DNA of 64,000 nucleotides from a virus (IMGVR_UViG_2751185783_000001:32001-96000), one strand, 5' to 3'. Positions 1,028 to 59,347 are shown, counted from the first letter of the stretch. Notes: generated from the sequence alone by a model not told the origin. Program-made: numbers and translations.

Positions 1028-1759
1028 GTGACGGCCTACATCACCGACGGATCCGGACCGCCCATCGTCCTCATCTCCCAGCTCGATTCCAGCGCCGACA
1101 TCTGGGCGCCGCTGCTCCCGCACCTCGACGGCTTGCGCACGGTCACCTACGACCGGCCCGGCACCGGCAGTGCGCCGCCACGGCCCGCACCCAACCCGCC
1201 GATCCCGCACAGCGGCTTCGCCCGGGAGCTCGCCGGGTTGCTGCGCTGGCACGACGTCCGCGAACCGGCGATCCTTGTCGGGCATTCGTTCGGCGCGCTC
1301 ATCGCCCGCGCCTACGCTGCCACCTGGCCGGACCGGGTCGCCGGCCTGGTCATCGTCGACGGGGCCATCCCGCAGTTCCACCTGATGCCCAGCGCCGAGA
1401 AGAAGATCGACGGCGGCACCGAGATCGATGTGGTCGCCGGGCAGGCCGAAATCCTCGCCGCGCCCACCCCCACCGTGCCCGCGGCAGTCGTCGTCCGCAC
1501 CCACGGGCGCTGGGACGGGCTCGTCCAGCCGCCGCACCCCGCCGTCGAGGACGTGTGGCTCACCAGCCAACGCCTGCTCGCCCGCGACTGGAACTGCCCG
1601 CTCATCATCGCCGACAACAGCGGCCACCAATTGCAGCGGGAAGCGCCCTCACTGGTCACCTACGCCATCCGTACCGTCCGGGACGCTGTCGTGTCGGGGG
1701 AACCGGTGAAAACGGATCCGCAGGCGGCTGAGGCTGCTGGCGGACATCTCGACAGCTGA
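1028..1759 (+). CDS. Alpha/beta fold hydrolase
   Basis: YDRPGTGS, nucleophile elbow GHSFG, and catalytic His in SGH. Confidence 0.85.
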   Translation: MTAYITDGSGPPIVLISQLDSSADIWAPLLPHLDGLRTVTYDRPGTGSAPPRPAPNPPIPHSGFARELAGLLRWHDVREPAILVGHSFGALIARAYAATWPDRVAGLVIVDGAIPQFHLMPSAEKKIDGGTEIDVVAGQAEILAAPTPTVPAAVVVRTHGRWDGLVQPPHPAVEDVWLTSQRLLARDWNCPLIIADNSGHQLQREAPSLVTYAIRTVRDAVVSGEPVKTDPQAAEAAGGHLDS

Positions 1760-1900: not shown

Positions 1901-2437
1901 CTAGGGGGCATGATTGCGCAGGTACTCGGCAGCCTTCAAGAGTCGTTCGTGATTCTCTGCGAACAATCCTAGGGCCGTATTGCAGTGACGACACAATAAA
2001 GCGCGGACCTTGCCGGTCTTGTGGCAATGATCAATATCGAGGTTCTCCCCGACGGGAGGGCGTAGGCAAATTGCGCAACGATTCCCTTGGGCCTCCACCA
2101 GGGCTCTTAACTGTTCGACAGTAAGGTCATACTTCTTCAGCCGATCCAGAGTTCTGTCTCTCTTGCGTACCCGCGGTCGCCGCTCAGCAGACCCAGGCTG
2201 GCAGCGCCATCCGCCCCTATCTGATGCAGGGCGTCGACGAATCTTCGTGCCAGGTCCGCATTCTGCGCAATCCGCCAAAAGCAGTTCTGGATCAACATTG
2301 GAGAGGCGATGCTTTTTGTGTCCTTGAGGCACGAATCCATCATTGCGCACCAGTAGGTGATTCTTGAAATCCAAGACGCCCGGCCGCACCGGGCCCAACC
2401 AGGTAGCGACACATCGAGGCGTGGGACGTTCGTCCAA
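1901..2437 (-). CDS. Endonuclease VII domain protein (start uncertain)
   Basis: KYDLT...QGNRCAIC...IDHCHKTGKVRALLCRHCNTALG...AAEYL is the EndoVII signature; DNA is visibly more AT-rich than its flanks. Confidence 0.85.
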   Translation of the reverse strand: MDERPTPRCVATWLGPVRPGVLDFKNHLLVRNDGFVPQGHKKHRLSNVDPELLLADCAECGPGTKIRRRPASDRGGWRCQPGSAERRPRVRKRDRTLDRLKKYDLTVEQLRALVEAQGNRCAICLRPPVGENLDIDHCHKTGKVRALLCRHCNTALGLFAENHERLLKAAEYLRNHAP

Positions 2438-4129: not shown

Positions 4130-5941
4130 TCACTTCGCATACACGTGACCCCAGTTGACGCCACGCCGCTCACCCAGGCCCGCCTCGATCTGCACCGGCA
4201 ACGAACCGCCTGCGGGCGCCCACGGGAAACTCAGCGCCGCCAACACGGTCTGCTCCACATCACCCGCGATACCAGCAGGAACGCTCAGGATCACCTCGTC
4301 ATGCACGACAGCCCGCAACATCGGCACCACCTCAACAGGCAGCCGCAGCAAGCCCTCCATCATGATGTCCCGCGCGCAGCCCTGACCCATCAGCGCCGGA
4401 GCCTGCGTCCACGCCCGGTCCGGGTCCACCCGCAGCGGCCGGCCGAACCCGTTGTCCAGCACCCGCCCCGCCTTGCCGTCCGCGCGGACCCGGTCCCGCC
4501 ACGCCACCAGCCCGGGGAACTGGGCACGCATCCCCGCGTCGAACTTGCGGGCCACCTGCTCCGACACCCCGGCGTTACGCACCAAACCGTTGATCGACAT
4601 GCCGTAGTTCCAGCCGTGCCCCAAAGCCTTCGCCTCATCACGGCGGCCCGGGTCACCCCAGACCCGGGTGGCCACCTCCCGGTGCAGGTCCAGGCCGGGC
4701 GCGAACATCGCCAGATACGCCGGGTCCTGCGACAGGGCCGCCAACGCCCGGGCGTCGACCTGCGACAGGTCCGCGGAGATCAGTACATGGCCGGGCTCCG
4801 ACAGGAACACCTCCCGCTCGGCGTACTTCCCGCCGCGTTTACCCATCACCGTCAGCCCGGGTTTCGTCGTCGACCAGCGCCCCGACGCCTGGAACATGCC
4901 GATCTCCGGATGCACCCGGTCACCGACGAGATACTGCTGCACCGTCTCGTAAACGGTCCGGACCCCGTTCAGCGACCCGACCAGGTCCACCAGGGCCATC
5001 ACGTCCGGACGGCCCGTGAACACGGCGGCCACCTCGGCGAGAGCGTCCTTACCGAACGACGGCTGCCCGTTCTCCGTGACCGGCAGCCGCACCCCCAGAT
5101 CGGCGAAGGCGCGCACGATCGCCGCCTTGCCTTCCGCGGTGGCGTGCGGTGACTTCGACACCCCGCCGCCCTTGCGCGCTGCGGGAAGCCCGTACCGGGC
5201 GGACAGGTCCGCGAGATGCCCGGCGCGGACGGCACGGTTCGCCGCCACCCGCCGCTCGAGTTCGGGCACATCGACCCGGAACCCGTTCATGCGGATCCGG
5301 GCGGCCACCGCGGCAACATGATGCTCCCGGCGAAGGTACGGCCCGGTCCGCAGTTGTCGTCCGAGCCGTGCGGTCAGGTCGACGTCACCGGCCAGGTAGC
5401 GCACGTACCGTTCGTCGTCCAGGGGGATCCGGTCGAAGCCGCCGTGCTGGCGGGCGAGGGCCTTCAGGTCGCCGGTCTTGGTGGCGCCGAGCAGGCGGTC
5501 GCCCATGCTGTCCAGGCTGTACTCGCGCAGGATCTGCGCCTGCTTCATGCCCGGCGCCGGCGGGTCGTTGAGGATCCCCGCCAACTTGGTGTCGAACACT
5601 CGGCCTGCGGCGGCCATGCCGAGCAGGTCGATGCTGTGGTGCAGGGCCATGGCGACCAGGTCGAAGGCGAGGACGTTGTGGCCGATGACCAGCCGTGCCC
5701 GACCGATGGCATCGGCAAGTTGGGCCGGGTCGTCGGTGATGGTGATCCGGTCGCCGGTCTGGTAGCCGCAGAGCCGGATGAACCCGGGCTGCCGGTGCCA
5801 CATCTGGTCTTCGCTGGCGGTCTCGATGTCGAGGGCGACCACACCGGGCGGCAGGGTGACGGCGCCGCGGGTGTTGAGGGTGCGGTGGTCGAGCCGGGGG
5901 TAGGGGACGTCGAACAGGGTGGGTTCTTCGACGGCTGTCAT
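4130..5941 (-). CDS. Family A DNA polymerase with 3'-5' exonuclease and no 5'-3' exonuclease
   Basis: ExoI ALDIET, ExoII GHNVLAFDL, ExoIII YLAGDV, QASGRWS, motif A DLSQVDAR, motif B KALGHGWNYG, motif C VHDE. ATG at 5941 overlaps the upstream stop (ATGA). Confidence 0.9.
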   Translation of the reverse strand: MTAVEEPTLFDVPYPRLDHRTLNTRGAVTLPPGVVALDIETASEDQMWHRQPGFIRLCGYQTGDRITITDDPAQLADAIGRARLVIGHNVLAFDLVAMALHHSIDLLGMAAAGRVFDTKLAGILNDPPAPGMKQAQILREYSLDSMGDRLLGATKTGDLKALARQHGGFDRIPLDDERYVRYLAGDVDLTARLGRQLRTGPYLRREHHVAAVAARIRMNGFRVDVPELERRVAANRAVRAGHLADLSARYGLPAARKGGGVSKSPHATAEGKAAIVRAFADLGVRLPVTENGQPSFGKDALAEVAAVFTGRPDVMALVDLVGSLNGVRTVYETVQQYLVGDRVHPEIGMFQASGRWSTTKPGLTVMGKRGGKYAEREVFLSEPGHVLISADLSQVDARALAALSQDPAYLAMFAPGLDLHREVATRVWGDPGRRDEAKALGHGWNYGMSINGLVRNAGVSEQVARKFDAGMRAQFPGLVAWRDRVRADGKAGRVLDNGFGRPLRVDPDRAWTQAPALMGQGCARDIMMEGLLRLPVEVVPMLRAVVHDEVILSVPAGIAGDVEQTVLAALSFPWAPAGGSLPVQIEAGLGERRGVNWGHVYAK

Positions 5942-6471
5942 CTGGGGCCGTGTCCCGGGTATGTCTGGCGGCAGTCGGTGCAGAGTCCGACGTCGAACCA
6001 CAGTAGGCCGAGGATCACCGAGGCGGTGTAGATCCCATCGTCTGTTGCCGGACCGGCGCAGACGTGGCCGCAGCCGTCGCAGGTTGCGCTCGCGATGGAG
6101 TTGCGCGGCGGGTACAGAAGCCCAGTGCAGGCGGCGCAAACGATCAGGCCCGGTTTCCAGGCGACCGCAAACACTGGTTTCGGGCTGTACGGCGAGGGGC
6201 TGTGGCGGCAGGTGGTGGCGGTATCGAGGAGCCACCAGACCAGGGCGTCGATCAGGGAGAGGCGGATCCAATCGGGGAGATCCTGGGGAGCCAGTGGGGT
6301 GAGCGGTGCGCCTTGCAGGGTTGAGGCGGCTTCGCCGAGTCGGCGAATTTCGTCGCCGGCGGCCTGCTGCTGGTCGGTGAACCAGGTCGGCAGGGCGTTG
6401 CGGGCCTCGGCGGCGAAGGCGGCGAGACGCGGATCGTTGAGCAGTTCATCGAAGATGACCGTGTAGTTCAT
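5938..6471 (-). CDS. Cys-rich putative Zn-binding protein
   Basis: CRH, CAAC, CDGC and CTDC motifs; GGAG RBS; coupled to the polymerase gene. Confidence 0.6.
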   Translation of the reverse strand: MNYTVIFDELLNDPRLAAFAAEARNALPTWFTDQQQAAGDEIRRLGEAASTLQGAPLTPLAPQDLPDWIRLSLIDALVWWLLDTATTCRHSPSPYSPKPVFAVAWKPGLIVCAACTGLLYPPRNSIASATCDGCGHVCAGPATDDGIYTASVILGLLWFDVGLCTDCRQTYPGHGPR

Positions 6472-6630: not shown

Positions 6631-8103
6631 TCACGGCGAGAGCGGCAGGAACCGGGTCTTCACGCACACATCCGTGTACCGGACCGTCCCGCTCTTCTCC
6701 TTCAAAAACCCGAGACGTTGCAGCTCAGAACCCAACTTCGTCTGCGTCACCGGCCGACCCCGCTGCCGGGTCACGTCCCACCACTTCGTGTACGACTCGA
6801 ACATCAGAGCCGCCGACACAGTCTCCCCGTCGACCCGCTCCAGCGCGTCCCCAGCAAACTGAGCCGCCGGAGATGCCTCGGACATGCCCGCCGCCGTCTG
6901 CCGCCGGATGGCCTCCGGCGCCTCCAACGGGCCCTTGCCTGTCCAGTGCTGAATGATCGCGTTCAGGAACCCGGACGTCTCCGCCTTCAGCTCGTCCTTG
7001 AACGACTCCCGCAGCTGGGTACGGTCGATCTCGTAATCCCAGGAGATCTCCACATACCGACGTTCCATACCGCCGTCCGCCGACCATGACGGCCGGTTGT
7101 TCGTGTCCATCTGGAACAGGATCTTCGGGGAGAACGTCACCGCTTCCTTGCCCATCGCCCGACCCTGCAACTGCCCACCACCGGTGATCTTCTTGAGCAT
7201 GCCCAGGTTGTAGGCCGCGCCCTCCTCCGGCTCGTCACAGAACACCAGCCGGGCACCCCGCATCGCCGCCAGCTCCGACCGGTACACCTCCCGGGCGTTC
7301 TTCGTACCCTTCAGAATCACCTCCACCGGCAGCTCCGTCGCATAGTCACCGGCCACCGCCGTCAACAGGCCCGCCATCGTGCTCTTGCCGTTCCCGCCCG
7401 CCGCGCCCCGGTTCACCACGAACTTCTCCATGCCCATGCCGGACAAGCCGCGCGCCCACATTTGAAGCTGGAACCGGCGTACGTCCTCGTCCGGCTGGTA
7501 GTCCTTGAACGCCTTGGCGACCTTCGGGGCTTCCTCATCCGGGTCGTACGCGCAAGCGGTCTTGGTGTTCATGTCCGTTGGCCGGGTGGCTCGGATCGAC
7601 GTCGCACCGTCAGGATGCAGCTCGATCATCCAGCCGTTGGCGGTCGGCAACAGCCACGGCGCCCCGTCGAGCGGCGGAGCGTCGAACGCAGACACTGGCG
7701 TGGCGACGCCCGGAGAACCCCGGGCGATCTTCATCGCCTGGTTCTGTTGGCTGCCACCGGAGAAACCGGTGAGTTCGACGCACTGCTCACGGCTGAGGCC
7801 CTTGGCGCTGTCGTCGAGCAATGCCCGCGTGTAGTCCTTGATCGTGGCCACCAACTCGGCCAGCACCGCCGGTTCCGCATCCGGCACCCACTTCGCGCCG
7901 TTGTGGTGCAGCCATCCCAACTCCCTGCACCACCGGAAACGGCCCTGCAAGCGGGGGATCAGTAACTCGGCGAGCTTGACCGCACCGAACGTCTCCACCG
8001 GGCGGGTGCACGATTCGCAGCCGGCACCCTTACCTTCGGCGCCGAGCGGTTCACCATGTTTGCAGGTGTAGTCGGCGCCGTACGGGATCACGCCGCCCAC
8101 CAC
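6631..8103 (-). CDS. D5/P4-family SF3 helicase (D5_N, ATPase, wHTH) with no primase domain
   Basis: GWLHHNGAKW (D5_N), Walker A GGNGKST, Walker B LVFCDE, LKKITGG, motif C DTNNRP, C-terminal ESYTKWW wHTH. Confidence 0.88.
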   Translation of the reverse strand: MVGGVIPYGADYTCKHGEPLGAEGKGAGCESCTRPVETFGAVKLAELLIPRLQGRFRWCRELGWLHHNGAKWVPDAEPAVLAELVATIKDYTRALLDDSAKGLSREQCVELTGFSGGSQQNQAMKIARGSPGVATPVSAFDAPPLDGAPWLLPTANGWMIELHPDGATSIRATRPTDMNTKTACAYDPDEEAPKVAKAFKDYQPDEDVRRFQLQMWARGLSGMGMEKFVVNRGAAGGNGKSTMAGLLTAVAGDYATELPVEVILKGTKNAREVYRSELAAMRGARLVFCDEPEEGAAYNLGMLKKITGGGQLQGRAMGKEAVTFSPKILFQMDTNNRPSWSADGGMERRYVEISWDYEIDRTQLRESFKDELKAETSGFLNAIIQHWTGKGPLEAPEAIRRQTAAGMSEASPAAQFAGDALERVDGETVSAALMFESYTKWWDVTRQRGRPVTQTKLGSELQRLGFLKEKSGTVRYTDVCVKTRFLPLSP

Positions 8104-13817: not shown

Positions 13818-13917
13818 ACCCGCCCCGCGCACTGCGGTGCCGCCCACGACCCTCACGGTCTGGGCGGTGCCGGATTACACGGGACACCCTACCGCCTGAT
13901 CTTTGGAGACGACCGCC

Positions 13918-16827
13918 ATGACCATGCCTGTAGCCCCGACCCGACCGCCCGCCCCGAAGGGTGCCCTGCCCGCCGGTATCGTGCTGTCCCGCTACTGGAG
14001 GGAATCACCCGGCGGGCCGTTGACCAAACACGACCACGACCGGCCGGTCGACGAGGACACCGACGAGCCGGTCGGACTGTGGTGGATGTGCCCCGCCGCC
14101 GCCACCTGCAAGACCGGCGAGTGGGTGTTCCGCACCGCCGAAGACAAGCCGGGCCGGCCGAAGAAGAAGTTCTGCGCCGAACACGGCACGGAACTGATGC
14201 CGGGCCGCGCCGAACCGGACGACGACAACCCGAAGCAGGCCGCCCGGAACTGGCTACAGCAGCGCCTGACCGAGAAGGCCACCGCCGCGAAGCAGGCCAC
14301 CCGTGACGCCGCCCAGCAGCGCATCGGCGCGCTCCGGGCGGCCGGACGAGACGAAGCGGACCGGCTGCGCCGGGACCTGCGCGAACACGTTCCGTCCGCC
14401 GCGGTGTCGTTCGGCGCGCTGGTTGCCGACTGGGCGCTGCTGTACGAACTCGACGCGCTGCCCACCTACGCCACCGGTGCGGGCCTGGCAGTCGGCGGGA
14501 CGCTGCTCGCCTACTGGGCGGTGTACGTCGGTGAGCTGGTGTGGGCCCGCCGGATGGGCTACACGATCCGGGAGTTGCCGGCGTCGGTGCGGTCCCGCGC
14601 GCGTTCCCGGGCGCGGTGGATCGCCGCGGGGGTTCTGTCGACGGGGGTGTGGCTGCTGATCGCGGAGACGATCGGCGCCGACCTGGGCAACGCGTGGGGT
14701 GTGGTGGCGAACATGATGGCCGCCGTGATGATCGGCGTCGTCAACTACAACCCGTGGCAGGCGATGGTCGAACGCCGCAAGGCCGAAGCCCGTGCCCGGG
14801 TGGAGGCCGCGGAGGAAGCGGCCCGGGCGGAGGAGGAACGCCTCACGGCCGAGGCTGCCGAACGAGACCGGCGCCGCATGGCCGCCGAAGAAGCCGCCCG
14901 TGTTGCGGAGGAAGCCGCCCAGACGGAGGCCCGCAAGATTGTGACCGTCACCGACGACACGGTCACCGCGGGCCGTAAGTTCGCCGAACGCTGGGAGAAG
15001 GTCGCCGCCGACGCGAAGGCCCGCAACATGGGCCCCGGCTTCGAGATCTGGCGCACCGCCGTGGTGCCGGAGCAGACCCGCAAGCTCACCGCCGTTGTCG
15101 GCGGCGAGACCGTGGTGATCGGCCACGAGTTCCTGATCCGTGCCGAACCCGGCGTGCTGGCCCCGCGAAACGGGATGAACGTGTCGCCGTTCTTGCAGAT
15201 GAAGACGTGGCTGTCGTCGATGCTCGAACTCGACGACGGCATGCTTGACCTTGCCTACCAGCCGAAGCGCCTCGACGACGGCAAGACCGACACCGAAGTG
15301 CTGATCAACCACGGGCTGGTGACCCTGTTCGACACCCACCCGCTCGGTGAGGCCGTCAAACACCCCGGCCCGTCGGGCGTGTACACCGACGCGAAGGGCG
15401 CCCGGTGGGGGTTCGCCGGCCGGGACCTGCGCGGCAACCCGGTCTACCGGAGCCGGTGGACGCCCGGGCAGGCCGGTGGTGGTGTGCGGGTGGGTGTGAC
15501 CGGCATGGGCAAGTCGGTGGTGACGCAGGTCGGCGCCTACAACGATCTGCTCCTCGGCATCCTGCCGATCATCCACGATGCGGGTAAGAACGCCATGGAC
15601 TTCGTGGACTTCTACGGCATCATCCCGGTGGGTCACACCATCGAACACCGGGAGATCATCCGGGAGTCGTTGTGGCACGAGATGAAACGACGCCAGGCGT
15701 GGATCAACACGCAGACCGCCGTCGGTCTGGGTGGCATGGAAGTCACCGCCGACCCCACCTGGGATCCGGTCCGTGGCGGCCCGCCGATCCGGTGCACGTG
15801 GGAGGAGTTCCACATGCACATGTCCGACCCGAAGTTCATTCAGTACCTCGGTGCGCAGGTCCGCCTTCAGCGGGCCACCGCCATCATGGCCGAAGGCGCC
15901 TCCCAGGGGTCGGGCCTGGCGGACTGGGGTGACCAGCAGATGAAAGAGCAGATGACCGAAATCTCGCTGGAGATGATGCGGGTCTCCGACCACACCGCGA
16001 GGCTCGCCGGCTACCAGGGCGGGCTGATGCCGTCCACGCTGCCGTCGCTGCCCGGCATGATGGTCAGCCAGGTACTGAAGGGAGATCCGGTCGCCTACCG
16101 GTCGGCGTTCATGCCCCGCGACCCGAGTAACCCCGAGTCGCTGATCTACCGGCTGAAGCGGCCCAACGGCACCCCCGAAGGCGAACAGATCGTGTTCGCC
16201 CCGCAGCTGCCGCCGGAGACCATCGCCGTGTTCAAGGAGCATGGACTGATGGACCTGTGGGAGAAAGGCAAGACCAAGTCTGGTCGAGAGCAGCTTCAGT
16301 CCGAAGCCGACCCGGTCGAGTCGACGGTCATGCCCGACATGCTCGAGGCGATCCTCGGCGGGCAGCCCACCCCGAAGCCGCGGCTGCGCGCCGATGAGGT
16401 CGTCTTGGGCCTGCTGAAGAACGAGGACGACAACGGGCGCGGCGGACTCACCCAGCAGCAGATGCTCGCGTCGCCGTGGTGGGCGCAGATCGAGGGGGAG
16501 TGGACGAAGAACGCCGGCATCCCCTCACACACCACGATCGGCCGGGCCTGCAAGAACCTGTCCGGGCTGGAATCCCCGCTGATCGGCTCCGACGAGGGGA
16601 CCCCCGCCCGCTGGTCGCTGCTGCCCGCAGGGTCGGCACGCGGGGAGCAGGCGTTGACGCTGCTGCGGTCAGCCGGCGTACTCGGCAAGCAGGCCCAATC
16701 CCAGACGCGGGCGTCTGGGATGGACATCGCAGGCCTGGAACGGCAGGCGATGCTCGAGGCCGAACAGGCAGCCCTGATTCAGGAACTGGTGCGGGAAGCT
16801 GCCGGGCTGACAGGACCGGGGCAGTGA
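13918..16827 (+). CDS. TraB/FtsK-SpoIIIE-like membrane ATPase (putative conjugative DNA translocase)
   Basis: N-terminal TMs, coiled coil, Walker A GVTGMGKS, Walker B-like CTWEEFH, PGM motif, C-terminal wHTH-like region. Confidence 0.75.
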   Translation: MTMPVAPTRPPAPKGALPAGIVLSRYWRESPGGPLTKHDHDRPVDEDTDEPVGLWWMCPAAATCKTGEWVFRTAEDKPGRPKKKFCAEHGTELMPGRAEPDDDNPKQAARNWLQQRLTEKATAAKQATRDAAQQRIGALRAAGRDEADRLRRDLREHVPSAAVSFGALVADWALLYELDALPTYATGAGLAVGGTLLAYWAVYVGELVWARRMGYTIRELPASVRSRARSRARWIAAGVLSTGVWLLIAETIGADLGNAWGVVANMMAAVMIGVVNYNPWQAMVERRKAEARARVEAAEEAARAEEERLTAEAAERDRRRMAAEEAARVAEEAAQTEARKIVTVTDDTVTAGRKFAERWEKVAADAKARNMGPGFEIWRTAVVPEQTRKLTAVVGGETVVIGHEFLIRAEPGVLAPRNGMNVSPFLQMKTWLSSMLELDDGMLDLAYQPKRLDDGKTDTEVLINHGLVTLFDTHPLGEAVKHPGPSGVYTDAKGARWGFAGRDLRGNPVYRSRWTPGQAGGGVRVGVTGMGKSVVTQVGAYNDLLLGILPIIHDAGKNAMDFVDFYGIIPVGHTIEHREIIRESLWHEMKRRQAWINTQTAVGLGGMEVTADPTWDPVRGGPPIRCTWEEFHMHMSDPKFIQYLGAQVRLQRATAIMAEGASQGSGLADWGDQQMKEQMTEISLEMMRVSDHTARLAGYQGGLMPSTLPSLPGMMVSQVLKGDPVAYRSAFMPRDPSNPESLIYRLKRPNGTPEGEQIVFAPQLPPETIAVFKEHGLMDLWEKGKTKSGREQLQSEADPVESTVMPDMLEAILGGQPTPKPRLRADEVVLGLLKNEDDNGRGGLTQQQMLASPWWAQIEGEWTKNAGIPSHTTIGRACKNLSGLESPLIGSDEGTPARWSLLPAGSARGEQALTLLRSAGVLGKQAQSQTRASGMDIAGLERQAMLEAEQAALIQELVREAAGLTGPGQ

Positions 16828-16832
16828 CCGTT

Positions 16833-17069
16833 TCAGGAACCGTGGCGCTGTACCCAGATTTCGAGGTAGGCGCTTTCGGGCTGGAAGTCGCTGTAGACCC
16901 AGCGCCGCTTGCGGACAGTGCCCGCAAGGTAGGCCTTCTTGAGGTCGTGATGGTCGTGCGACCTCAAGAAGATCTCATCGCCGGTGGCCGGCACGCCGAA
17001 GGTCGTGTCGAGGGTGTACTTGCCACCGACCGGTTTGCCGTCGGCGTTGTCGATGAGGAATACCTGCAT
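16833..17069 (-). CDS. Hypothetical protein
   Basis: 78-aa globular-looking ORF, antisense insert in the transfer operon. Confidence 0.5.
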   Translation of the reverse strand: MQVFLIDNADGKPVGGKYTLDTTFGVPATGDEIFLRSHDHHDLKKAYLAGTVRKRRWVYSDFQPESAYLEIWVQRHGS

Positions 17070-31286: not shown

Positions 31287-34200
31287 TCACCCCCGCGCCA
31301 TCACCGGTGTCGACCGGGCCGACTGGACCGTGCGGCGGGTGCCCGACAGCATTGCCGCCGCCACGCCGGGCGCCACGTCTCCGATGGCGGAGATGAGCTT
31401 TTCGAGGCGGTCGATGACCTGTTCCATCGTCGGCGCCGGGGTGACGGTTTCGTTGCGGCCGGTCCCGTTGTAGATGGGCGGGGACCAGCCGGGTTGCAGC
31501 CAGCCGCCGGTGTCCATGACGGGGAACTGTGACTGGCCCTTGCCGAATTTCGGCAGGATCGCGCCGAGGCGGGCCGCCCAGTGGTCGTGGGCGTTGCCGC
31601 CCGAAAAATTGTGCTGGTTCCACACTGCCCCGGTGTAGGTGTGCTTCCTGCCGTTGTGCAGGTTGTACTGCTGATACGGGGTGATCAGCTCCTTGGTGAT
31701 GTTGCGGTAGTGGTCGTAGATGTACTTCGCCACGCTCTTGTCCGGCGGCACATCCACGGCCCGGTCTGTGCCGTGATACGACGGGTTGCCGGACAGGGTG
31801 CGGGCGCCCGGCCGGAACCCGGAGATCAGCCGCAGCCCGGGGAACTGCGCGCGCAAGGCCCGCATCATTCCCGCGCTGCCGCCGAACGGCGACGACCCGT
31901 TACCGGGGCCGGACGTGCCCGATGATCCCGGCGCGGCTACGAATCCGGTCACCTTGTCGACCGCGGCGTCCAGGAGCTTGCCCGGGACGGCGGTGACGAG
32001 TTTGCCCCACGGCAAGTCCTTGCCGGGCACCAGGTTGGTGAGGTTCCCGACGAGGGTTTTGATACCGCCGGCGGGGTCAGCCAGCAGACCCTTCGCCCCC
32101 GTGAGGACGTCCGATGCCTTGCCTCTGATCTTCTTCCACAGGTCCCCCAGGCCGTCACCGCTGCCGATGATGCCGCCCGACTTGAACTGGCCAGACATGG
32201 CCCGGCGTACGGCAGGGACGCCGCCAGTACGGGCGGCCTGATTCATCGTGTTGACCCAGTCGGTGCCAACCGCACGCCCAAACTCGGGCCGCATGACCGG
32301 CTCGCCGCCGGACAAGTCGAGGGTGCCGCCGGTCGGCGAGTAGAACCGGTGGACGTCACGGCCCGGGGTGTAGCCGGGCAGAACACCGCCCTTCGCGAAG
32401 CCCTTTGGCAGGGAAATCTTGGCGGCTTCCTTGACCCCGAAGAACTTCGCGATCTTGTTGTAGCCGCCGATCAGTCCGCCGTTCAACACGGTGTTGACCA
32501 CAAAACGGACTGGCTCTTTCGCCACGTCGGTCAACTTCGACCACGCCGTTTTGATCGCCCCGACGCCGGTGGTGAAAGCGTTCGGGATTGTCTTCGTGAC
32601 GAATGTCTGGATCGGGGTGAACACGTTGTTCTTGATGGCCGTCCACACGTCACCCAGGCCGGTACGGATCGCCCCGAATGCCGTGGTCACCTTCGTCTTC
32701 GCGGTGGCGAACGCGTTTGGGATCGTCTCCATCACAAACGTGCGCATCGGCGTGAACACATTCGTTTTGATCGACGTCCACGCCGACGACAGGCTGTTAC
32801 GGATCTCCGTCCAGCGCGCGGACGCCTTCTCCTTGAGCTGCTGGAAGCCGTTCGGGATGGTTACCGTGACGAAGGTCTTCAGCGGGTTGAACACCTGCTG
32901 GACGAGTTGGTTCCAGGCGCCGGTGATGGCCTTGCCCGCGGCGTCGAAGAACCCGCCGATTTTCTTCGCCCAGCTGATCGCGGTGAGGATCCAGCCCTGG
33001 ATGAGGGTGACCCACTTCTCCGCGTCGGTGATCAGTTTGCCCATGGCGGGCAGCCACACATTGACCAGCTTGCCGATGAATTCGCTGGCCATCGCCACCC
33101 ACAGGCGGATCTTGTTCTGGTTCTCGGGGTCGCGCAGCCAACCCAAAACCCGGGTGAGGACGCCTTCGACGCCGCCGAGGAACGACCCGGAGGCTTCCTT
33201 CGACTGCGGGAACAGGATCGCGATGATCTCGCCGAAGATGCGGAAGACCAGCCCGCCGATCCGGAAGATCTGATCCAGCGTCTTCGCGGCCCCGGCCATG
33301 AACGAGTCGAGCTTGCCGGACTCGTCCGCGCTCTTCATCCACGCGCCGAACTTGGTGAAGATCCCGCCGATCAGATCGCCGATGACCTGAAGGACAGGCT
33401 TCGCGCTGTCGCCCAGCCGGGCCAGCCCGTCGAACAGGCCCGGCAACCCGGCACCGATCCGGGACATCATCTCGCCGAACCCGTCGACTGCGCCCTTCAC
33501 GTTCTTGATGAATCCGGCCTCGCCGAACTTCTTGAATAGGCCGTCGCCGATGATGTTCAGCCGGTCCGCGAGCCCACCCAACGACTCCTTCAGGTGCGGA
33601 ATCCACGTGTCCGCAAGCTTCTGCACCTGCCCGGACACGCCATCGAGGAGCCGGTCCTGCACGAATTTGCGCAGCTCCCCGAACGGCTCCCGCAAACCGA
33701 ACAGAGTCTTCACCAGGTCGCGGGCGTTCGGGCTCAGCTCCGCCATCTGCTGGTTGAGTTTCTCCAGCGCGGACCCGCCGGCGAGCCCGGCCTGAGTGGA
33801 CGCCTGCCCCAGTGCCCGCTGCGCCGCCGTCACCGCCTGCGACGCCTGCGCCAGCTGGTAGGCACCCTGACGCTGCTGGTTCTGCCTCGAACGGCGCGCC
33901 TCATCCAGCGCACGCTCAGCCGCCTCGACTTTCTGCGCCCCGGCGACCCGGGCATCCTCCGCGGCCTGCTGCGCCTTACGGACCTCCGCCTCAGCGGCTG
34001 CCACACCGCGGCGGGCATCCGCCACACCCTTGTCGGCCTGCGCGATGCGTTCCCGTGCCCGCGTGACCTCGTCGGACCCCTCGACGCCCTTCTTGACGGC
34101 GTCCTGCTGTTCCGCCGCGAGGCGTTTGCCGCGGACGGCGAGGTCGTTGAGTTGGGCGACCTGCCGTTCGTAGGTGAGTTGCGCTTGGGCCTTCTGCTCG

Positions 34201-35729
34201 GCGGTGGCCTTCGGATCCGCGAGGACCTTGTTCAGGGCCTTCTGCGCCTCGGCCACATCCAGTTGGGCCTGCCGCTGGTCCAAGCCGTTGTTTTTGACCG
34301 CGCTGGCGAGGTCTTCGAGGTTACGTCGCGCGTCCTCCTGCGCCTCGGTCAGATCGCGGCGAACCTGCAACGCCGCCCGCTCGGCATCCGTCAACGCCAG
34401 CTGGGCGTCACGGACCCGTTGCCCGGCGGCGACGATCTGTTCCTGCGCGGCTTTGGCTTGGCGGGCAGCTTCTTGCCGGGCCTGACCGACCGCCCGTTCG
34501 GCGTCGGCGATCTGCTGCGCGGCACGACGGGACGCCTCCGCCAGGGTGGCGCGGGTGTTGGCCTGCGCCGCGAGCGCCGACTTCACCTGATCACTGGCGT
34601 TCGCGACCGCGTTCTGAGCGCCGGCGAACGACGCCGACGACTTCGCCGCCTCGTCCTGCGCCGCGACCATCGCCGAGAAAGCGCCGCCGACCCCGCCCAA
34701 CCCCAGCTTGAGAGTGAGCGCGCCAGCCGCCAGCCCGAACAGTGCCCCGGACGCGGCACCCAGCAGGCCGCCGACCGTGGCGACCACCGGGGCCAGCGCC
34801 AGAAACGCCACACCCAAACCGACTGTCGCCGCAGCACCGGCCAGCAACGCCGTGACAACCGCGCCGATGGCCAGATTCAGGCCGCCCGTCGCCGCGGTCA
34901 GCGCGGCACCCGACGCCGCGGCCCCCACCATCGCCGTGCTGATCTGCCCGCCCGCCTGCACCGCGGACTGGCCCAATGTCGAGAAGAACGTGCCGGCGAT
35001 CCCGGACACGCCGGAGAACGCCTGCCCGAGCAGCCCGGCGACCGTGCCCGCAAGGGAGGTGACGCCCTGCTGCGCCCGGCCGGTGTCGACGTCCACATCG
35101 ACGTCGACGTCCCTGCCGTCGAGCTTGTCGACCTGAGCGGTCAGGGCGGCCAGCTTCGCCACCGCAGCGGCAACATCGGCCTTGACCTGCACGCTCGGCG
35201 ACTGCGCCGCGAGAGCCTGCAACTGCTGCTCCAGGTAGCGGACCTCGGCGACCGCCCGCCCGGCGTCCAGGTCCACGCCGATCGTCTTCGACGCGAGCGC
35301 CCCCAGCTGGGCGGACAGGTCCCGCAGCTGCTGCTCGGCCTTGTCTTTCGCCACCCCGACGGTGATCGGCGGCAGGGCCTTGGCGGCCTGCGTCAGCTGC
35401 TTTTTGAAACCGTCGGCGAACGACCCGCCGGACTCCTCACCGGACTTGCGGGTGCGGGTCTTGTCCGGGCCGACCGGCGCGTCCTTCGTCTTCTCACGCG
35501 CCCGGTCGGTGAAGCCCTTCGCGAACTCGTCGGCGACGGCCTTACCGATGTCGGCGCCGGACGCGGCCATGACCTTCGTCAGAGACTCGGCGAGGGACTT
35601 GCCCAGAGTCCGGCCTGCGGTCTTGCCGGCCTTGTCGAGGTCCCCGTCGAGAGCCCGTTCGGTGTCCTGCCGGAACGACGACGTGTCCGGCCGGATGCGC
35701 ACGAAGGCGGTAGCGAGCGGGGTACCCAC
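31287..35729 (-). CDS. Tape measure protein with C-terminal peptidase-like domain
   Basis: 1480 aa; LATAFVRIRPD start; coiled coils; aromatic periodic repeats; FAKGGV; SGFRPG..SYH...AVDV..HDH. Confidence 0.92.
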   Translation of the reverse strand: MGTPLATAFVRIRPDTSSFRQDTERALDGDLDKAGKTAGRTLGKSLAESLTKVMAASGADIGKAVADEFAKGFTDRAREKTKDAPVGPDKTRTRKSGEESGGSFADGFKKQLTQAAKALPPITVGVAKDKAEQQLRDLSAQLGALASKTIGVDLDAGRAVAEVRYLEQQLQALAAQSPSVQVKADVAAAVAKLAALTAQVDKLDGRDVDVDVDVDTGRAQQGVTSLAGTVAGLLGQAFSGVSGIAGTFFSTLGQSAVQAGGQISTAMVGAAASGAALTAATGGLNLAIGAVVTALLAGAAATVGLGVAFLALAPVVATVGGLLGAASGALFGLAAGALTLKLGLGGVGGAFSAMVAAQDEAAKSSASFAGAQNAVANASDQVKSALAAQANTRATLAEASRRAAQQIADAERAVGQARQEAARQAKAAQEQIVAAGQRVRDAQLALTDAERAALQVRRDLTEAQEDARRNLEDLASAVKNNGLDQRQAQLDVAEAQKALNKVLADPKATAEQKAQAQLTYERQVAQLNDLAVRGKRLAAEQQDAVKKGVEGSDEVTRARERIAQADKGVADARRGVAAAEAEVRKAQQAAEDARVAGAQKVEAAERALDEARRSRQNQQRQGAYQLAQASQAVTAAQRALGQASTQAGLAGGSALEKLNQQMAELSPNARDLVKTLFGLREPFGELRKFVQDRLLDGVSGQVQKLADTWIPHLKESLGGLADRLNIIGDGLFKKFGEAGFIKNVKGAVDGFGEMMSRIGAGLPGLFDGLARLGDSAKPVLQVIGDLIGGIFTKFGAWMKSADESGKLDSFMAGAAKTLDQIFRIGGLVFRIFGEIIAILFPQSKEASGSFLGGVEGVLTRVLGWLRDPENQNKIRLWVAMASEFIGKLVNVWLPAMGKLITDAEKWVTLIQGWILTAISWAKKIGGFFDAAGKAITGAWNQLVQQVFNPLKTFVTVTIPNGFQQLKEKASARWTEIRNSLSSAWTSIKTNVFTPMRTFVMETIPNAFATAKTKVTTAFGAIRTGLGDVWTAIKNNVFTPIQTFVTKTIPNAFTTGVGAIKTAWSKLTDVAKEPVRFVVNTVLNGGLIGGYNKIAKFFGVKEAAKISLPKGFAKGGVLPGYTPGRDVHRFYSPTGGTLDLSGGEPVMRPEFGRAVGTDWVNTMNQAARTGGVPAVRRAMSGQFKSGGIIGSGDGLGDLWKKIRGKASDVLTGAKGLLADPAGGIKTLVGNLTNLVPGKDLPWGKLVTAVPGKLLDAAVDKVTGFVAAPGSSGTSGPGNGSSPFGGSAGMMRALRAQFPGLRLISGFRPGARTLSGNPSYHGTDRAVDVPPDKSVAKYIYDHYRNITKELITPYQQYNLHNGRKHTYTGAVWNQHNFSGGNAHDHWAARLGAILPKFGKGQSQFPVMDTGGWLQPGWSPPIYNGTGRNETVTPAPTMEQVIDRLEKLISAIGDVAPGVAAAMLSGTRRTVQSARSTPVMARG

Positions 35730-42743: not shown

Positions 42744-43685
42744 TCAGGTGCCCGAGATCTGCCGGGCAGCGAGGGGGTCGGTGACGACCGGGACGGTGAG
42801 CCGGCGCGCCCACACGTTCCACGCGTCCCGGTTCTTGATCCGGTCGGTCTGGACCTGGATGCCGTTCTCCGCGGACGCGTAGCCGGGGTCGAGGTCCGTT
42901 TCGTCGGCGAGGCCGCCGAGGGCGTGGGAGTCGAGGACCCACACACTGTCGGTGCCGCCGGGCATGTTCGCCACCGGCGTCTTGATGACCTTCAGGTCGG
43001 CGATCGTCTCGATCGTCCCGCCGTAGATCGGGTTGTCGGTCGTCTCCCGCTTGCGGAGCTGGGCGACCTTGTCGTCGGACACCATGTACGCGTACTTGGT
43101 GTTCGTCATCAGGATCGTGTCGGCCTTGTAGCCCATCTCCTGGCCGTCGATCGCCGCCTTGGTCAGCTCGATGTCGCGCAGGATCGTGGCGGTGGCCAGG
43201 TTCGACCAGGCGGCGGTCGCGGTGATCGGGGTGGCGTTGACCGCCGACACGATCGCGGCGATGGTCAGCCGGTCGATCTTCTGGATGAGGGTGTTGATGA
43301 CGATCCGTAGCGCCCAGTCGATCGCGCTGCCCATCGGCACCGACCGCTTGATGCGCTCGTCGGTGAGTTCGGTGGCCTGGCCCCACTTCTTCACCTGCGC
43401 CAGCGCGGCCGTGCCGGACAGCGGCAGGGCCCGCGGGTACTCACTGCCGGGCGCGACGGCGGTGATGCTGCGGTTGGTGAAGAGGGGCTGGTCGTTGATC
43501 TCGTACGCGACCGCGCCGCCGCTCGACCGGTACTTGGCCAGCAGTAGCTGGTCCGCGACGAACTGGATGTCGGTCAGCTCCCGCAGACGGCGCGAGATGG
43601 CCGTCGGGCTGGCAAGCATCCGGTTGATCGTGAGGAGATCACCGGACAGGCTCGCCGGAGCGGGCGGATATGCCTGAAGCGGCAT
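42744..43685 (-). CDS. Major capsid protein
   Basis: 313 aa; VAPGSEYP, VKKWG, VPVVTDPLAA; follows protease and decoration genes. Confidence 0.85.
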   Translation of the reverse strand: MPLQAYPPAPASLSGDLLTINRMLASPTAISRRLRELTDIQFVADQLLLAKYRSSGGAVAYEINDQPLFTNRSITAVAPGSEYPRALPLSGTAALAQVKKWGQATELTDERIKRSVPMGSAIDWALRIVINTLIQKIDRLTIAAIVSAVNATPITATAAWSNLATATILRDIELTKAAIDGQEMGYKADTILMTNTKYAYMVSDDKVAQLRKRETTDNPIYGGTIETIADLKVIKTPVANMPGGTDSVWVLDSHALGGLADETDLDPGYASAENGIQVQTDRIKNRDAWNVWARRLTVPVVTDPLAARQISGT

Positions 43686-45465: not shown

Positions 45466-45644
45466 CTCTGCTCTCCGCCGGTGCTGCCAGGGACCGGGCC
45501 AGCCGCCGGTTCGGCGAGGACCGGCGGCTGGTAGCCGCCGTCCATCCGGTCTACGAGTGAGCTGGCAGGTGGAACAGCGGTGACAGTGGCCGGCACCTCG
45601 TCGGTTGCCCACCTCTGGGCAAGGGAAGCCGGTTTCGCTTTCAT
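45462..45644 (-). CDS. Microprotein
   Basis: ATGA overlap with the ART gene stop; GAGG RBS. Confidence 0.4.
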   Translation of the reverse strand: MKAKPASLAQRWATDEVPATVTAVPPASSLVDRMDGGYQPPVLAEPAAGPVPGSTGGEQR

Positions 45645-48600
45645 GCGATCACCTCGATGTCTAGGACCCGGATACCGTTTTCGTCGACTCCGCGGTCGGC
45701 TACCACGCGACGACGCTGGCCGCGGGCGGTCAGGATTTCGGCTTCGTGCTGGAAATCAAGCCATACCTCGTCGGGACGCCCCATCGGGGATACCTGGACG
45801 CCGGGAGAGCCCTTGGGCAGCAAGATCCTCATCATGACCGGCGGCATGTCGGGTTCTTCCATCTGGGCGACTTGGGCGAACTGGCTGGCGACTCGGACGT
45901 CGGCGGTGGTGGAGGCGAAAGCCGAATCCTCCCACTCCATCCCGGTGACGTCGGGCCCCCAGGCGTCACCGAAGATTTTCCCCGGGTCTTTGATCGTCCG
46001 GTAGACCAGTACGTCTTTCGGTAGCGGCGAGGCAGCCATCGCATCGTCGATCTTCTTCACCACATCGGTGATCTCAGGACCGCCATCAGCGGTACCACGC
46101 AGGTAGGAGTTGATCTCGGAGAACGCCTCGCCCTGGTATGTGGCCAGTGCATCCCCGATTACAGCGCTCTGGGATTCCGACCAGCCGGAAGGCACAGAAA
46201 TGGGGATCCCGGACCCGAACCTGACGGGAACAGAATCAAGGCCGCCCTGACCTTGTGCAGCCTTCTTCGCTGCGGCATCCCAACCAGAGGCTGTCATCCC
46301 ACCGGACACAACGCCACCCGGCGCTGGGCCGGCAGCGGGAGTTTCCTGCCCGGCGGGTACCGCGGTACCGTTTCCACCAGCCCGGGCAGGGGCGGGCGCG
46401 GCTTCCTGTTTGCCCGCCTGCTGTCCAGCGCCGGCCTTCGGCAACACGCGGACGTCGATCTGGCGGATCCCGTCGACCACACCGCGGTCGGTTACGACCT
46501 CGATCTCGTGGCCGCGGTCGATGAGGATCTCGGCCTCGGACGGATCACGTGGGTCGTAGAGGTCGATCGCCTTGGTGCCGGCAGGGACGGCCACCCGCAT
46601 CTGGACGGGGTCTTCGCCGCGGGAGAACGGGGCGATCGCGCCGGTGTCGGTGGACGTCGACAGGAAGCCGTCCTCGCGCCAGCGCATGCCGGTCAGGTCG
46701 CCGTCGAGGCGGTCGCCGAACATGGCCCGGGACTGCCGGATCCCGCGCAGGACGGTGATGTCAGCGTTCAATTCCGAGCCGGTCATCGCGTCGTCGATCC
46801 CGGCGATCGCCTTCTGGGTCTGGGCGTTGCCGGGGCCGCCGGTCCGCAGCGCGCCGTTGATCCGTTTGAAGTCGGTGCCGTTGCGGGAGTCCTGGTAGCC
46901 CTCGAGGCCTGCGCGCTGGGTGTCGGTCAGATCGTTGCCGGGCCGGTGCGGGCCTTTCGGGATGGCTGCGGAGACTGCGGCCCGGTCGATCTCGGCGGAA
47001 GCCGGCGCCGGGACGGCCGGTTGCGCCGGGGTGGGCAGACCGGTACCCGCCGTCGTCTCGCTGGGCGCAGGCCCGGACGGGGTCTGTGGCGCCGTCTGCG
47101 GGGCGGCCCCCTCCCCGGCGGACAGGCCCTGCTGGCGCTTGTCGCGGATGACGTCCGGTTTGAGGTCGTCGCGCCGGTCCGGGTCCGCGTACTGGGCCTC
47201 GAGGTCCGCGACCGCACGGGCGACCGCCGTGTCGATCTCCAGTTTGCCTTCGCGGGACTCGTGCCGCCGGTTGTGGGCCTTCTGCCTGACCTGATCGGCC
47301 AGACGACGGCCGGACATCCCGCCCTTGTCCCATTTGGCCAGAGCCTGCGACAGGGCGTCGGTCTCCATGCCGTCACGGCGGACCAGGGGGATCGCCCACA
47401 GCTGGTCCATCAGCTTGCGCAGGGCGTCCGGGGTCGAGTCCGGGACCTCCGGTGCCGGGCCGTCGGGCGCGTCGAGACCGATGACCGCCAGTTGCACGGC
47501 CCGCTTACCGGGCCCGTCTGGCAGCCGGCCGGCGAGCATCTTGAGCTGGTCGAGCTGGGCCTGGGCGGGCAGACGTCCCATGACGGTGTCGGTTGCCATC
47601 CGGCCAAGGTGTTCGGCCAGCGGGAGGCCGTCGACGTCGAGCATCCGGTCGGCGCCGAGCATGCCGACGGCCTGGCCGATCTCGCCGTCGGCGTGGAACG
47701 CGACCGGGCTGTCGGGGTCGGCGCCCCATTTGTTGTCCGACAGCGGCTGGGTGCTCATGACCCGCGGCAGCGGGCCACCCGGCTGGGCCGTCGGCGCGTC
47801 GGGCACGTTTGCGGTTGTCGGGGTCTCGGGTGCGAGGGCGGAGGAGGGCGGCGCCGCGGGGAGCTGGTTCTCCGGGTTTTCGCTATTCTGCACGGCGGCC
47901 GGTTCAGCGGCTGGTTCGGCCGCTGGACCGGAGGTGTCCCCGCCGTTGCCGCGCCGGTCCGGTTCGTTGGTGGAGATCAGGTGCTTGGGCTCAGGGCCGA
48001 TGACGATCGCCGCGTCGAGTTCGGCCTGCGACAACTCGCCGCGGGCGGGGTCCGGCTCGAGGCGGATCCGGCGTGCCCGGTCGAGGCGGCGCAGCTCGGC
48101 GTCGGCGTCTTCGCGGGACATGCCGGGCAGCTGGTCGCGGACCTTCGCCAACAGGACCAGGTCGCCGGGCTTGCGGCCGTCGGCGGTCAGGGCATCGTGG
48201 ATGGCGTCCATGATCTGGTCGGCGGGCGTGGCGGGCTCGGCCCCACCAGCCGGGCCAGGGACAGAGACGTCCCTACGGTTCTCGTCAGCGACGCCGGACG
48301 GCTTCGACACCGGGTCGGCCTTGGCGGCGCCGGATCCCTGGGAATCCGCACCGCGGTCCAGGCCTGGTGCCTGAGGGGTGCCCGCTTCCCGGTCGTTGTT
48401 GCCTTCGGTACCCATCTCGTCGGCGACCAGCGCATCCACGAGCTGGGACTTACGCAGCCTGCCCGGCCTGAGCCCACGCTCACGCATCATGGCCTGCAAC
48501 TCGGGCACCCGGTTCTTCATCAGATCCGCACGGACCTGATCGGCGCCTTCCGGCTGCTCGCTACTGGCGTCGTCCGCTGCGGGCGCCTTCTCCGCGGGCG

Positions 48601-49336
48601 GGGGAGCCGTCTTCGCCGGCGCGGAAGGCCGCGCCGTGGGCGGAGCCTGCTCGGCCGGTGCGTCAGCGGACGGGCCGTCCAGCGCCTTCTCGTCGCCCTT
48701 GCCTGCCTCCGCGCCCTTCTTCGACAGCACGGCTACGTGCATGTCGTAGCCGCCCGCACTGTTCGCCTCGACTTTGGTGACGACCATGTCCAAGTCCCGG
48801 CCGAGGATCACTTCGCCGGTCTCCGGGTTCACCGCGGCGCGCGTACCGGCCGGGGCAGAAATACGCATCCGCACGTCGCCTTTGGTGGCGCGGACCGTAC
48901 CGACGGAGGTGGGCGCGTAGGCGGCGTCACGAACCCGCATGCCGACCAGGCCGTCCGGACCGGCCGGACCGAACGCGGCGACCGGCACCCGCCGGGACAG
49001 CATCACGTCGTCGGGCAGATCCACCATCGCGGCGTCCATGGCCGTGACCGACGGGTCGCCGGTTTTGCCCGCACGCAGCGCCTTGTGGGTGTCGACGTAC
49101 CCGCCCGCGACATACGAGGCGACGGCCTGGCGGTGGGCGGCGGGGGCGATCGGCTCGAGGTAGGCGGGTGCCTTGGTCCCGACGATGCCCTTCTTCGGCC
49201 GCAGCCCGGAGGTGATCTGTTCGGCCAGGCCGATCTCGGCCCGGCTGGCGGGCGCGGACCGGGACCGGGTGAACCGGCCGTTCTTGTCCCGCGGGTGCAG
49301 CGACGGGATCCACTTCTTGACGGCCACGATCACCAC
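45641..49336 (-). CDS. Head-region protein with VIP2-like ADP-ribosyltransferase domains (two intact, one degenerate) and SAP-like motif
   Basis: VLRG..FLSTS..SEAEIL and VYRT..FASTT..HEAEIL; N-terminal HPRDKNGRF. Confidence 0.85.
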   Translation of the reverse strand: MVIVAVKKWIPSLHPRDKNGRFTRSRSAPASRAEIGLAEQITSGLRPKKGIVGTKAPAYLEPIAPAAHRQAVASYVAGGYVDTHKALRAGKTGDPSVTAMDAAMVDLPDDVMLSRRVPVAAFGPAGPDGLVGMRVRDAAYAPTSVGTVRATKGDVRMRISAPAGTRAAVNPETGEVILGRDLDMVVTKVEANSAGGYDMHVAVLSKKGAEAGKGDEKALDGPSADAPAEQAPPTARPSAPAKTAPPPAEKAPAADDASSEQPEGADQVRADLMKNRVPELQAMMRERGLRPGRLRKSQLVDALVADEMGTEGNNDREAGTPQAPGLDRGADSQGSGAAKADPVSKPSGVADENRRDVSVPGPAGGAEPATPADQIMDAIHDALTADGRKPGDLVLLAKVRDQLPGMSREDADAELRRLDRARRIRLEPDPARGELSQAELDAAIVIGPEPKHLISTNEPDRRGNGGDTSGPAAEPAAEPAAVQNSENPENQLPAAPPSSALAPETPTTANVPDAPTAQPGGPLPRVMSTQPLSDNKWGADPDSPVAFHADGEIGQAVGMLGADRMLDVDGLPLAEHLGRMATDTVMGRLPAQAQLDQLKMLAGRLPDGPGKRAVQLAVIGLDAPDGPAPEVPDSTPDALRKLMDQLWAIPLVRRDGMETDALSQALAKWDKGGMSGRRLADQVRQKAHNRRHESREGKLEIDTAVARAVADLEAQYADPDRRDDLKPDVIRDKRQQGLSAGEGAAPQTAPQTPSGPAPSETTAGTGLPTPAQPAVPAPASAEIDRAAVSAAIPKGPHRPGNDLTDTQRAGLEGYQDSRNGTDFKRINGALRTGGPGNAQTQKAIAGIDDAMTGSELNADITVLRGIRQSRAMFGDRLDGDLTGMRWREDGFLSTSTDTGAIAPFSRGEDPVQMRVAVPAGTKAIDLYDPRDPSEAEILIDRGHEIEVVTDRGVVDGIRQIDVRVLPKAGAGQQAGKQEAAPAPARAGGNGTAVPAGQETPAAGPAPGGVVSGGMTASGWDAAAKKAAQGQGGLDSVPVRFGSGIPISVPSGWSESQSAVIGDALATYQGEAFSEINSYLRGTADGGPEITDVVKKIDDAMAASPLPKDVLVYRTIKDPGKIFGDAWGPDVTGMEWEDSAFASTTADVRVASQFAQVAQMEEPDMPPVMMRILLPKGSPGVQVSPMGRPDEVWLDFQHEAEILTARGQRRRVVADRGVDENGIRVLDIEVIA

Positions 49337-59304: not shown

Positions 59305-59347
59305 GAAACCTCCTCGGGCAGTTGGGGTAGGGGTGGTGGCCGGCGCG

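Follow-up and report, generated by a model that had tools for sequence, protein, structure and literature searches.

The 64,000-nucleotide stretch IMGVR_UViG_2751185783_000001:32001-96000 (the window, as the whole of it is called here) represents a siphovirus-like element integrated into an actinobacterial genome of 10.3 Mb, and its family A DNA polymerase gene (polA) raises the question of how such an enzyme recognizes the sugar of its substrate. The gene encodes Asp and His at the positions equivalent to Glu710 and Phe762 of Escherichia coli DNA polymerase I (Pol I). In PolA ternary complexes of known structure, these residues are found below and next to the sugar of the incoming nucleotide. 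These are two textbook determinants of sugar selectivity in family A: position 710 (A2) is the steric gate and position 762 is also known as B3. Both have changed, and on the sequence evidence an Asp gate combined with His762 is the ancestral state, now fixed, of a large PolA clade from actinobacterial phages, prophages and plasmid-like elements. The features of the gene are as follows, in window coordinates.

4130..5941, minus strand: polA, family A DNA polymerase of 603 amino acids, with 3'-5' exonuclease and polymerase domains in a stop-free open frame
5822..5830, minus strand: Exo I motif of the proofreading exonuclease, DIE (DxE)
5660..5677, minus strand: Exo II motif of the proofreading exonuclease, NVLAFD, which fits the test pattern Nx3(F/Y)D
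5384..5398, minus strand: Exo III motif of the proofreading exonuclease, YLAGD, which fits the test pattern Yx3D
4748..4771, minus strand: motif A, DLSQVDAR, with the codon of catalytic D391 (equivalent to D705) at 4769-4771 and the codon of D396 (equivalent to E710), GAC, at 4754-4756
4601..4630, minus strand: motif B (O-helix), KALGHGWNYG, with the codon of His442 (equivalent to F762/B3), CAC, at 4616-4618, the codon of Asn445 (equivalent to I765) at 4607-4609, and Tyr446 equivalent to Y766
4295..4303, minus strand: motif C, HDE, equivalent to H881-D882-E883

The polA frame has the properties of a real gene. Its G+C content at third codon positions is 0.84, as in real genes of this window, and its product, with the N-terminus MTAVEEP, is identical to a called protein (P0002) in the public collection. 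The protein scores 97.1 bits against the Pfam model PF00476 (DNA_pol_A; gathering cut-off of 34.3) and 21.9 bits against DNA_pol_A_exo1, slightly below the cut-off of 23.6. The 603-residue chain begins at the exonuclease domain and has no 5' nuclease domain. A TGR-type motif is present (QASGRW) and the catalytic set for family A is complete (D391, R434, K438, Y446 and H547-D548-E549), such that the catalytic motifs and the three proofreading motifs are all preserved. Glu at the steric gate has been described as a family A-wide feature; Asp396 at this position is a departure within the family and no ground for excluding the protein from it.

An earlier, sequence-only reading of this DNA had placed DLSQVDAR and KALGHGWNYG between positions 4595 and 4790, and the translation of 4601-4771 (minus strand) gives exactly these motifs. 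It had further proposed that Asp occupies the steric gate and His position 762, and this assignment is confirmed by two approaches. In a HMMER alignment with the Klenow fragment (1dpi/1d9d/8oo6; E value of 1e-24), the polA protein is gap-free across motifs A and B, with SADLSQVDARALAALSQD opposite SADYSQIELRIMAHLSRD and RRDEAKALGHGWNYGMS opposite QRRSAKAINFGLIYGMS (polA protein and Klenow, respectively). Because invariant anchors flank both sites on either side (D705, S707, Q708 and R712 around motif A; R754, K758, G763, Y766 and G767 around motif B) and there are no gaps, there is no scope for a register shift at E710 or F762. An AlphaFold2 model built with 67 clade sequences as input (predicted local distance difference test score of 94.1, predicted template modelling [TM] score of 0.92) has the canonical topology: a strand spanning residues 385-392 ends at D391, D396 lies in the first turn of a helix spanning residues 395-404, and H442 is on the O-helix (431-445), one turn ahead of Y446. 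Foldseek matches of this model include Aquifex, Bst, Taq, Klenow and M. smegmatis Pol I (E values of approximately 1e-22, TM scores of 0.69-0.73). The earlier reading had allowed that a structure might place some other residue at the gate, and the model instead predicts D396 in the canonical place. Although overall identity to solved PolAs is just approximately 20%, the gap-free motifs between invariant anchors and the fit of the predicted secondary structure to the canonical strand-helix and O-helix positions make an alignment artefact, with a different residue really at the gate or at position 762, vanishingly improbable.

Klenow, KlenTaq and Bst share with the polA protein the same fold (TM score of approximately 0.7), the catalytic residues and the Exo I-III motifs. 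Relative to canonical Pol I, the polA protein has E710 replaced by Asp, F762 by His, I765 by Asn, L764 by Trp and N761 by Gly; the canonical NLQNIP segment reads GLTVMGKRGG. With scores of 92 bits against NF004397 (cut-off of 720) and 73 bits against TIGR00593 (cut-off of 600), and without a 5' nuclease domain, the protein was rejected as a canonical bacterial Pol I. No model for its clade was found in NCBIfam, where the best match is the Pol I model at 92 bits.

The earlier reading had also asked whether the two substitutions occur together across PolA families, and they do so within one clade. A word-indexed search with the polA protein returned 326 proteins at E<=1e-10; Asp and His occupy both columns in all 120 of these that were listed (39-100% identity). 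An exhaustive HMMER scan of 1.84 billion cluster representatives found 305 proteins at E<=1e-30. For the tree, sequences were trimmed to the exonuclease and polymerase domains with a hidden Markov model of the clade, aligned, and analyzed with FastTree, giving a set of 259 clade members (39-100% identity) and nine outgroup PolAs. The gate is Asp in 259/259 clade members and Glu in all nine outgroups, and His762 is present in 252/259 members. The equivalents of D705, R712, K758 and Y766 are each found in 259/259, the HDE residues in 257-258/259 and Asn765 in 221/259, and the Exo I-III motifs are conserved. Fixed over several hundred cluster representatives, the Asp/His pair is far from chance. 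The polA protein carries the motif signature of this clade, Dxx(Q)(V/I)D(A/M)R with KxxxHGxNYG, and is monophyletic with Pas55 of Actinoplanes phage phiAsp2.

Seven members lack His762: five have Leu, Ile or Phe and fall within one nested subclade of 11 members, and two have Asn. Since they are nested on the tree, these exceptions are read as secondary losses. In all five of the Leu/Ile/Phe members Asn765 is replaced by Leu or Met and residue 761 by Asp, with Asp710 unchanged; as every one of them is altered at both sites, positions 762 and 765 appear to change together.

With the tree rooted on the host PolA, the first of the sampled clade members to branch off is the polymerase of the Mycobacteroides abscessus prophage prophiGD24-3, in which motif A is DYSNADAR and motif B is KPLGHGWSYG. 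A search from this polymerase found 853 further proteins (E<=1e-10), which come from metagenomes and from Mycobacteroides, Nocardia, Saccharopolyspora and Glycomyces; prophages of Mycobacteroides, Nocardia and Saccharopolyspora make up a basal subclade. Among the 120 of these that were listed, Asp and His are found wherever both motifs could be located, with zero contradictions. The Mycobacteroides/Nocardia branch (L013:5001-6785, P0266-P0385) has its own variations: motif C is mostly HDA, the E883 equivalent being Ala, and in the DYSNADAR form of motif A Gln708 is replaced by Asn and Val/Ile709 by Ala.

Cultured phages in the clade are phiAsp2, the Streptomyces phages TP1604, YDN12, Maih and Mischief19, phiSAJS1, Xkcd426 and the approximately 186-kb Satis/Kradal group, together with M. 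abscessus prophages. The motifs were checked and confirmed in four of these cultured-phage and prophage members. A megablast search of a phage collection with the polA gene gave no match, with relatives found at the protein level only, and no additional copy was found in 400 other genomes of the phylum (E<=1e-60, three candidates scored per genome). By this measure, with three candidates per genome scored, the clade is rare among species-representative genomes.

The suggestion that the pair might be a subfamily trait of actinophage polymerases is right in essence but too wide: it is a trait of a clade (259 members on the tree), and it does not extend to actinophage PolAs at large. A Glu gate with Phe762 or Leu762 is retained in the D29-like polymerases of Lucivia, Dexes, Tiger and Thermobifida P318, and in those of Attoomi, Stoor, Wildwest and Yahalom. 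The pair is thus a trait of one, phiAsp2 Pas55-like, clade. Pas55 itself, the prototype of the clade, is 41% identical to the polA protein over 94% of the query, with motif A DLSQVDMR and motif B KAIGHGWNYG, and is associated with a superfamily 3 (SF3) helicase of the same type. It was described by Kazlauskas, Krupovic and Venclovas (2016, PMC4889955) as a fusion of a DnaG-type primase, an SF3 helicase and PolA; its active-site residues go unmentioned in the available portion of that paper. In contrast to Pas55, the window module is split into three genes (helicase, Cys-rich open reading frame [ORF] and PolA) and lacks the DUF3854/Toprim primase part. Next in similarity among phage relatives, at approximately 26% identity, are the D29-like PolAs (cluster 9 of Czernecki et al. 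2023, PMC10201439), which are likewise replicative exonuclease-polymerase proteins of actinobacterial phages and prophages, but which have a Glu gate and Phe762 and lie outside the clade on the tree, such that the polA protein does not belong to cluster 9. DivPolA1 (Yutin et al. 2024, PMC11348598) lies outside this clade: its thumb is truncated and its exonuclease dead, and it is found as a second polymerase in addition to a regular one. The polA protein, by contrast, is full length with its exonuclease motifs preserved, and its element has no other polymerase.

The host genome encodes two other PolAs. Host Pol I (contig C291) has the motifs DYSQIEMR and KAMNYGLAYG. A third PolA (contig C297:24598-25548; L003) has DAGQLEPR and KLALLGAMYG, with Leu at B3, and looks like the APEX type of Czernecki et al. 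Both retain Glu at the gate and one of the usual residues (Phe, Tyr or Leu) at 762. The polA protein was itself compared with APEX PolAs (Leu at B3, DxE motif lost) and rejected as one, as it has His at B3 and DIE is present.

The clade appears to have escaped classification. Publications on viral PolAs (PMC6302109, PMC9069017, PMC10201439) describe position 762 as Phe, Tyr or Leu. Czernecki et al. distinguish 19 PolA clusters in which B3 is Phe, Tyr or Leu, and call A2 the steric gate; their text does not contain the word "aspartate", uses "histidine" solely for a tag and mentions neither residue variant, and the clade is apparently absent from this 19-cluster classification. Keown et al. (2022, PMC9069017) retained only sequences with F, L or Y at 762, a filter that excludes His762 and would therefore have removed the clade from their survey. 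A literature search found no paper on E710D or F762H.

The surroundings of clade polymerases bear on what the pair might be for. Among the new 50%-identity cluster representatives from the HMMER scan, 140 of 150 listed were tabulated for architecture: PolA is C-terminal in a protein of at least 900 amino acids in 97/140, and stands alone in 39/140. In the fusions tested the domain order is DUF3854 (Toprim-like) - D5_N - DUF5906 - PolA. In one relative PolA is joined to a DnaG-type primase, and in another to an SF3 helicase. The polA protein has no such N-terminal primase-helicase fusion; it stands alone and its helicase is a separate gene. Approximately 70% of the 50%-identity cluster representatives (P0124-P0263) are single polypeptides of 1200-1800 amino acids in which PolA is combined with an SF3 helicase and a Toprim-like primase (DUF3854). 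A LAGLIDADG domain in one of them, P0229, hints at an intein. The N-terminal 890 amino acids of P0124 showed no similarity by BLASTP to the window helicase, the Cys-rich ORF or a 974-amino acid ORF of the window (described below). This type of polymerase is used by the cultured phages TP1604, Mischief19 and Satis, with DNA genomes of 54-187 kb, and by the prophage prophiGD24-3. In the Streptomyces phages TP1604, Mischief19 and Satis a primase or primase/helicase gene lies directly upstream of polA, and in prophiGD24-3 a ribonucleotide reductase gene lies approximately 1.5 kb from it. As the signature is common to enzymes that work beside dedicated primases, Asp/His is not explained by a need of the polymerase to prime.

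The genes of the window itself that are relevant to replication are listed below.

5938..6471, minus strand: Cys-rich ORF of 177 amino acids, directly upstream of polA, its stop overlapping the polA ATG (ATGA)
6631..8103, minus strand: P4/D5-type SF3 helicase, with D5_N and DUF5906 domains and TIGR01613 above its cut-off; no primase domain is recognizable
56524-58200, minus strand: DnaB-like helicase
58270-59388, minus strand: O-like initiator

The element therefore has two helicase-based replication modules, with the O-like initiator and DnaB-like helicase at one end and the SF3 helicase, Cys-rich ORF and PolA at the other. The Cys-rich ORF had no match in Pfam, NCBIfam or PHROGs.

What the altered pocket does can be approached from the background on the gate. 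The gate-relaxing substitutions in print are Ala in Klenow and Gly in Taq variants; Asp is not known to be among them, and the beta and gamma carbons, which account for much of the steric block, are still present in Asp. We consider it probable that the enzyme is an ordinary replicative, proofreading PolA in which a polar Asp-His(-Asn) site has taken the place of Glu and an aromatic residue around the sugar while selectivity for deoxynucleoside triphosphates (dNTPs) has been kept. The polA product would serve as the replicative, proofreading family A polymerase of the integrated siphovirus-like element; in place of the usual pocket of Glu and an aromatic residue or Leu there would be a polar, co-adapted one, formed by Asp710, His762 and in most cases Asn765 beside a retained Tyr766, that would still place the 2'-deoxyribose and select dNTPs. 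We infer both the Asp-His(-Asn) contact and the preserved selectivity. This reading is supported, indirectly, by the fixation of the pair in hundreds of lineages, by the co-variation of 762 and 765, and by the fact that these enzymes are the sole polymerases of DNA phages of up to 187 kb with proofreading intact. In Bst, the 3'-OH of the dNTP is placed above E658 and beside F710 (reviewed in PMC10520511). Several points weigh against it. Asp stays in the few members without His, and since it persists after His has been lost the two residues are not obligatorily coupled. Klenow and Bst discriminate less well between sugars when the gate is shortened to Ala, and the gate is assisted by F762 (PMC10520511; bioRxiv 10.64898/2026.05.20.726624), such that a real change in selectivity is possible. 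Finally, the window encodes no recognizable primase domain, whether DUF3854, Prim-Pol or Toprim_2.

It is accordingly conceivable, if rather unlikely, that the Asp/His pocket relaxes or shifts sugar selectivity, so that ribonucleotides (rNTPs), dideoxynucleotides (ddNTPs) or 2'-modified nucleotides are tolerated or the 3'-OH is sensed differently. Such a shift might be of adaptive value to the clade, as in replication with depleted dNTP pools. The altered residues occupy the two PolA positions whose role in sugar discrimination is best documented; in hundreds of lineages the change is fixed and maintained by purifying selection; and discrimination against ddNTPs is abolished when residue 762 is polar, as with Tyr in T7. 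T7 gp5 resembles the polA protein in having a hydrogen-bonding side chain at B3 (Tyr at 762/526) beside the 3' position of the sugar, but it retains a Glu480 gate, and the group at B3 is a phenol rather than an imidazole. Against relaxed selectivity stand the role of these enzymes as sole, proofreading polymerases of sizeable DNA genomes, the beta and gamma carbons that Asp keeps, and the ribonucleotide reductase gene near polA in M. abscessus prophages, which points to dNTP supply. We regard as similarly doubtful the idea that the Asp710-His762-Asn765 pocket embodies a different mode of sugar recognition, in which the 3'-OH or the 2' position would be sensed by hydrogen bonds and not by a hydrophobic steric gate, and rNTPs, ddNTPs or 2'-modified nucleotides would be tolerated to a measurable degree.

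Two more specialized roles, use of unusual nucleotides and primer synthesis, had been raised in the sequence-only reading, and neither is borne out by the context of the gene. Phage PolA subfamilies with special substrates do exist, DpoZ and the UDG-PolAs among them (PMC10201439), and DpoZ (aminoadenine PolAs) is alike in being a phage subfamily with a diagnostic active-site substitution. A PolA specialized for a non-canonical base or nucleotide, whether DpoZ-like or serving a hypermodified genome, is nevertheless highly improbable here. The hallmarks of DpoZ are Phe at B4 and a PurZ gene in the genome; the clade has invariant Tyr766, no PurZ is encoded in the window, and the two adenylosuccinate-synthetase matches of the genome are on other contigs. 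Pfam and PHROG scans of approximately 50 window ORFs revealed no gene for nucleotide metabolism or base modification, and the contacts of residues 710 and 762 are with the sugar rather than with the base. With 39 bits against phage_DpoZ_1 (NCBIfam; cut-off of 500), Tyr446 at B4 and no PurZ in the window, DpoZ identity was rejected. Self-priming, in which PolA would act with the upstream Cys-rich protein in the manner of CCPol-MP and the altered gate would serve priming, draws on the lack of DUF3854, Prim-Pol and Toprim_2 domains in the window, on a window helicase without the N-terminal primase part present in its relatives, and on the translational coupling to polA of a Cys-rich ORF of no known family. 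We give this scheme very little credence: the Asp/His pair is also found in relatives with a DnaG-type or DUF3854 primase fused or adjacent (one such fusion, Pas55, is described in PMC4889955), so the signature predates, and is independent of, any loss of a primase. The O-like initiator and DnaB-like helicase of the element could recruit host DnaG. Moreover, CCPol is without most of its exonuclease domain, whereas that of the polA protein is complete and, from its motifs, looks active.

The preferred reading of a rebuilt pocket with ordinary selectivity has consequences of its own, as it would still correct the claim that the gate Glu is universal in family A. Residue 762 serves as an ecological and phylogenetic marker of viral PolAs, and the clade is not small: it comprises approximately 300 clusters at 50% identity (E<=1e-30), with hundreds more in the Mycobacteroides/Nocardia branch. 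It is a natural experiment on the rebuilding of a sugar pocket and could supply polymerase scaffolds for biotechnology. If sugar recognition is truly different, the clade would offer a natural, mesophilic, proofreading PolA scaffold with an unusual substrate range, and might explain the replication of primase-poor elements like this one.

The remaining features recognized in the window are those of the left end and of the virion modules.

1901-2437, minus strand: endonuclease VII (PF02945, 1.9e-22), near the left end of the element
31287-35729: tape measure
42744-43685: major head protein
49346-51538: portal; a protease gene belongs to the same head module
51555-52937: large terminase

No tRNA genes were found in the window. 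The endonuclease VII gene adjoins an alpha/beta hydrolase gene (1028-1759, plus strand) that is probably host DNA. Elsewhere in the genome, contig C35 (4596-5615, minus strand) carries a second, divergent adenylosuccinate-synthetase-like gene (179 bits, covering profile positions 2-359 of 416), with purA on contig C79. Within the window, the 974-amino acid ORF noted above (13903-16827, plus strand) has no Pfam or PHROG match and neighbours an ORF at 16833-17069 (minus strand). On the contig of a 77%-identical relative, polA is immediately preceded on its own strand by genes of 967 and 78 amino acids, an order that points to a rearrangement around the 974-amino acid ORF in this window. Between the portal and protease of the head module, a 1231-amino acid protein (45641-49336, minus strand) contains an ADP-ribosyltransferase exoenzyme domain (PF03496, 1.4e-35; PHROG 3895), and is probably a virion-packaged ADP-ribosyltransferase fused to a MuF-like protein.

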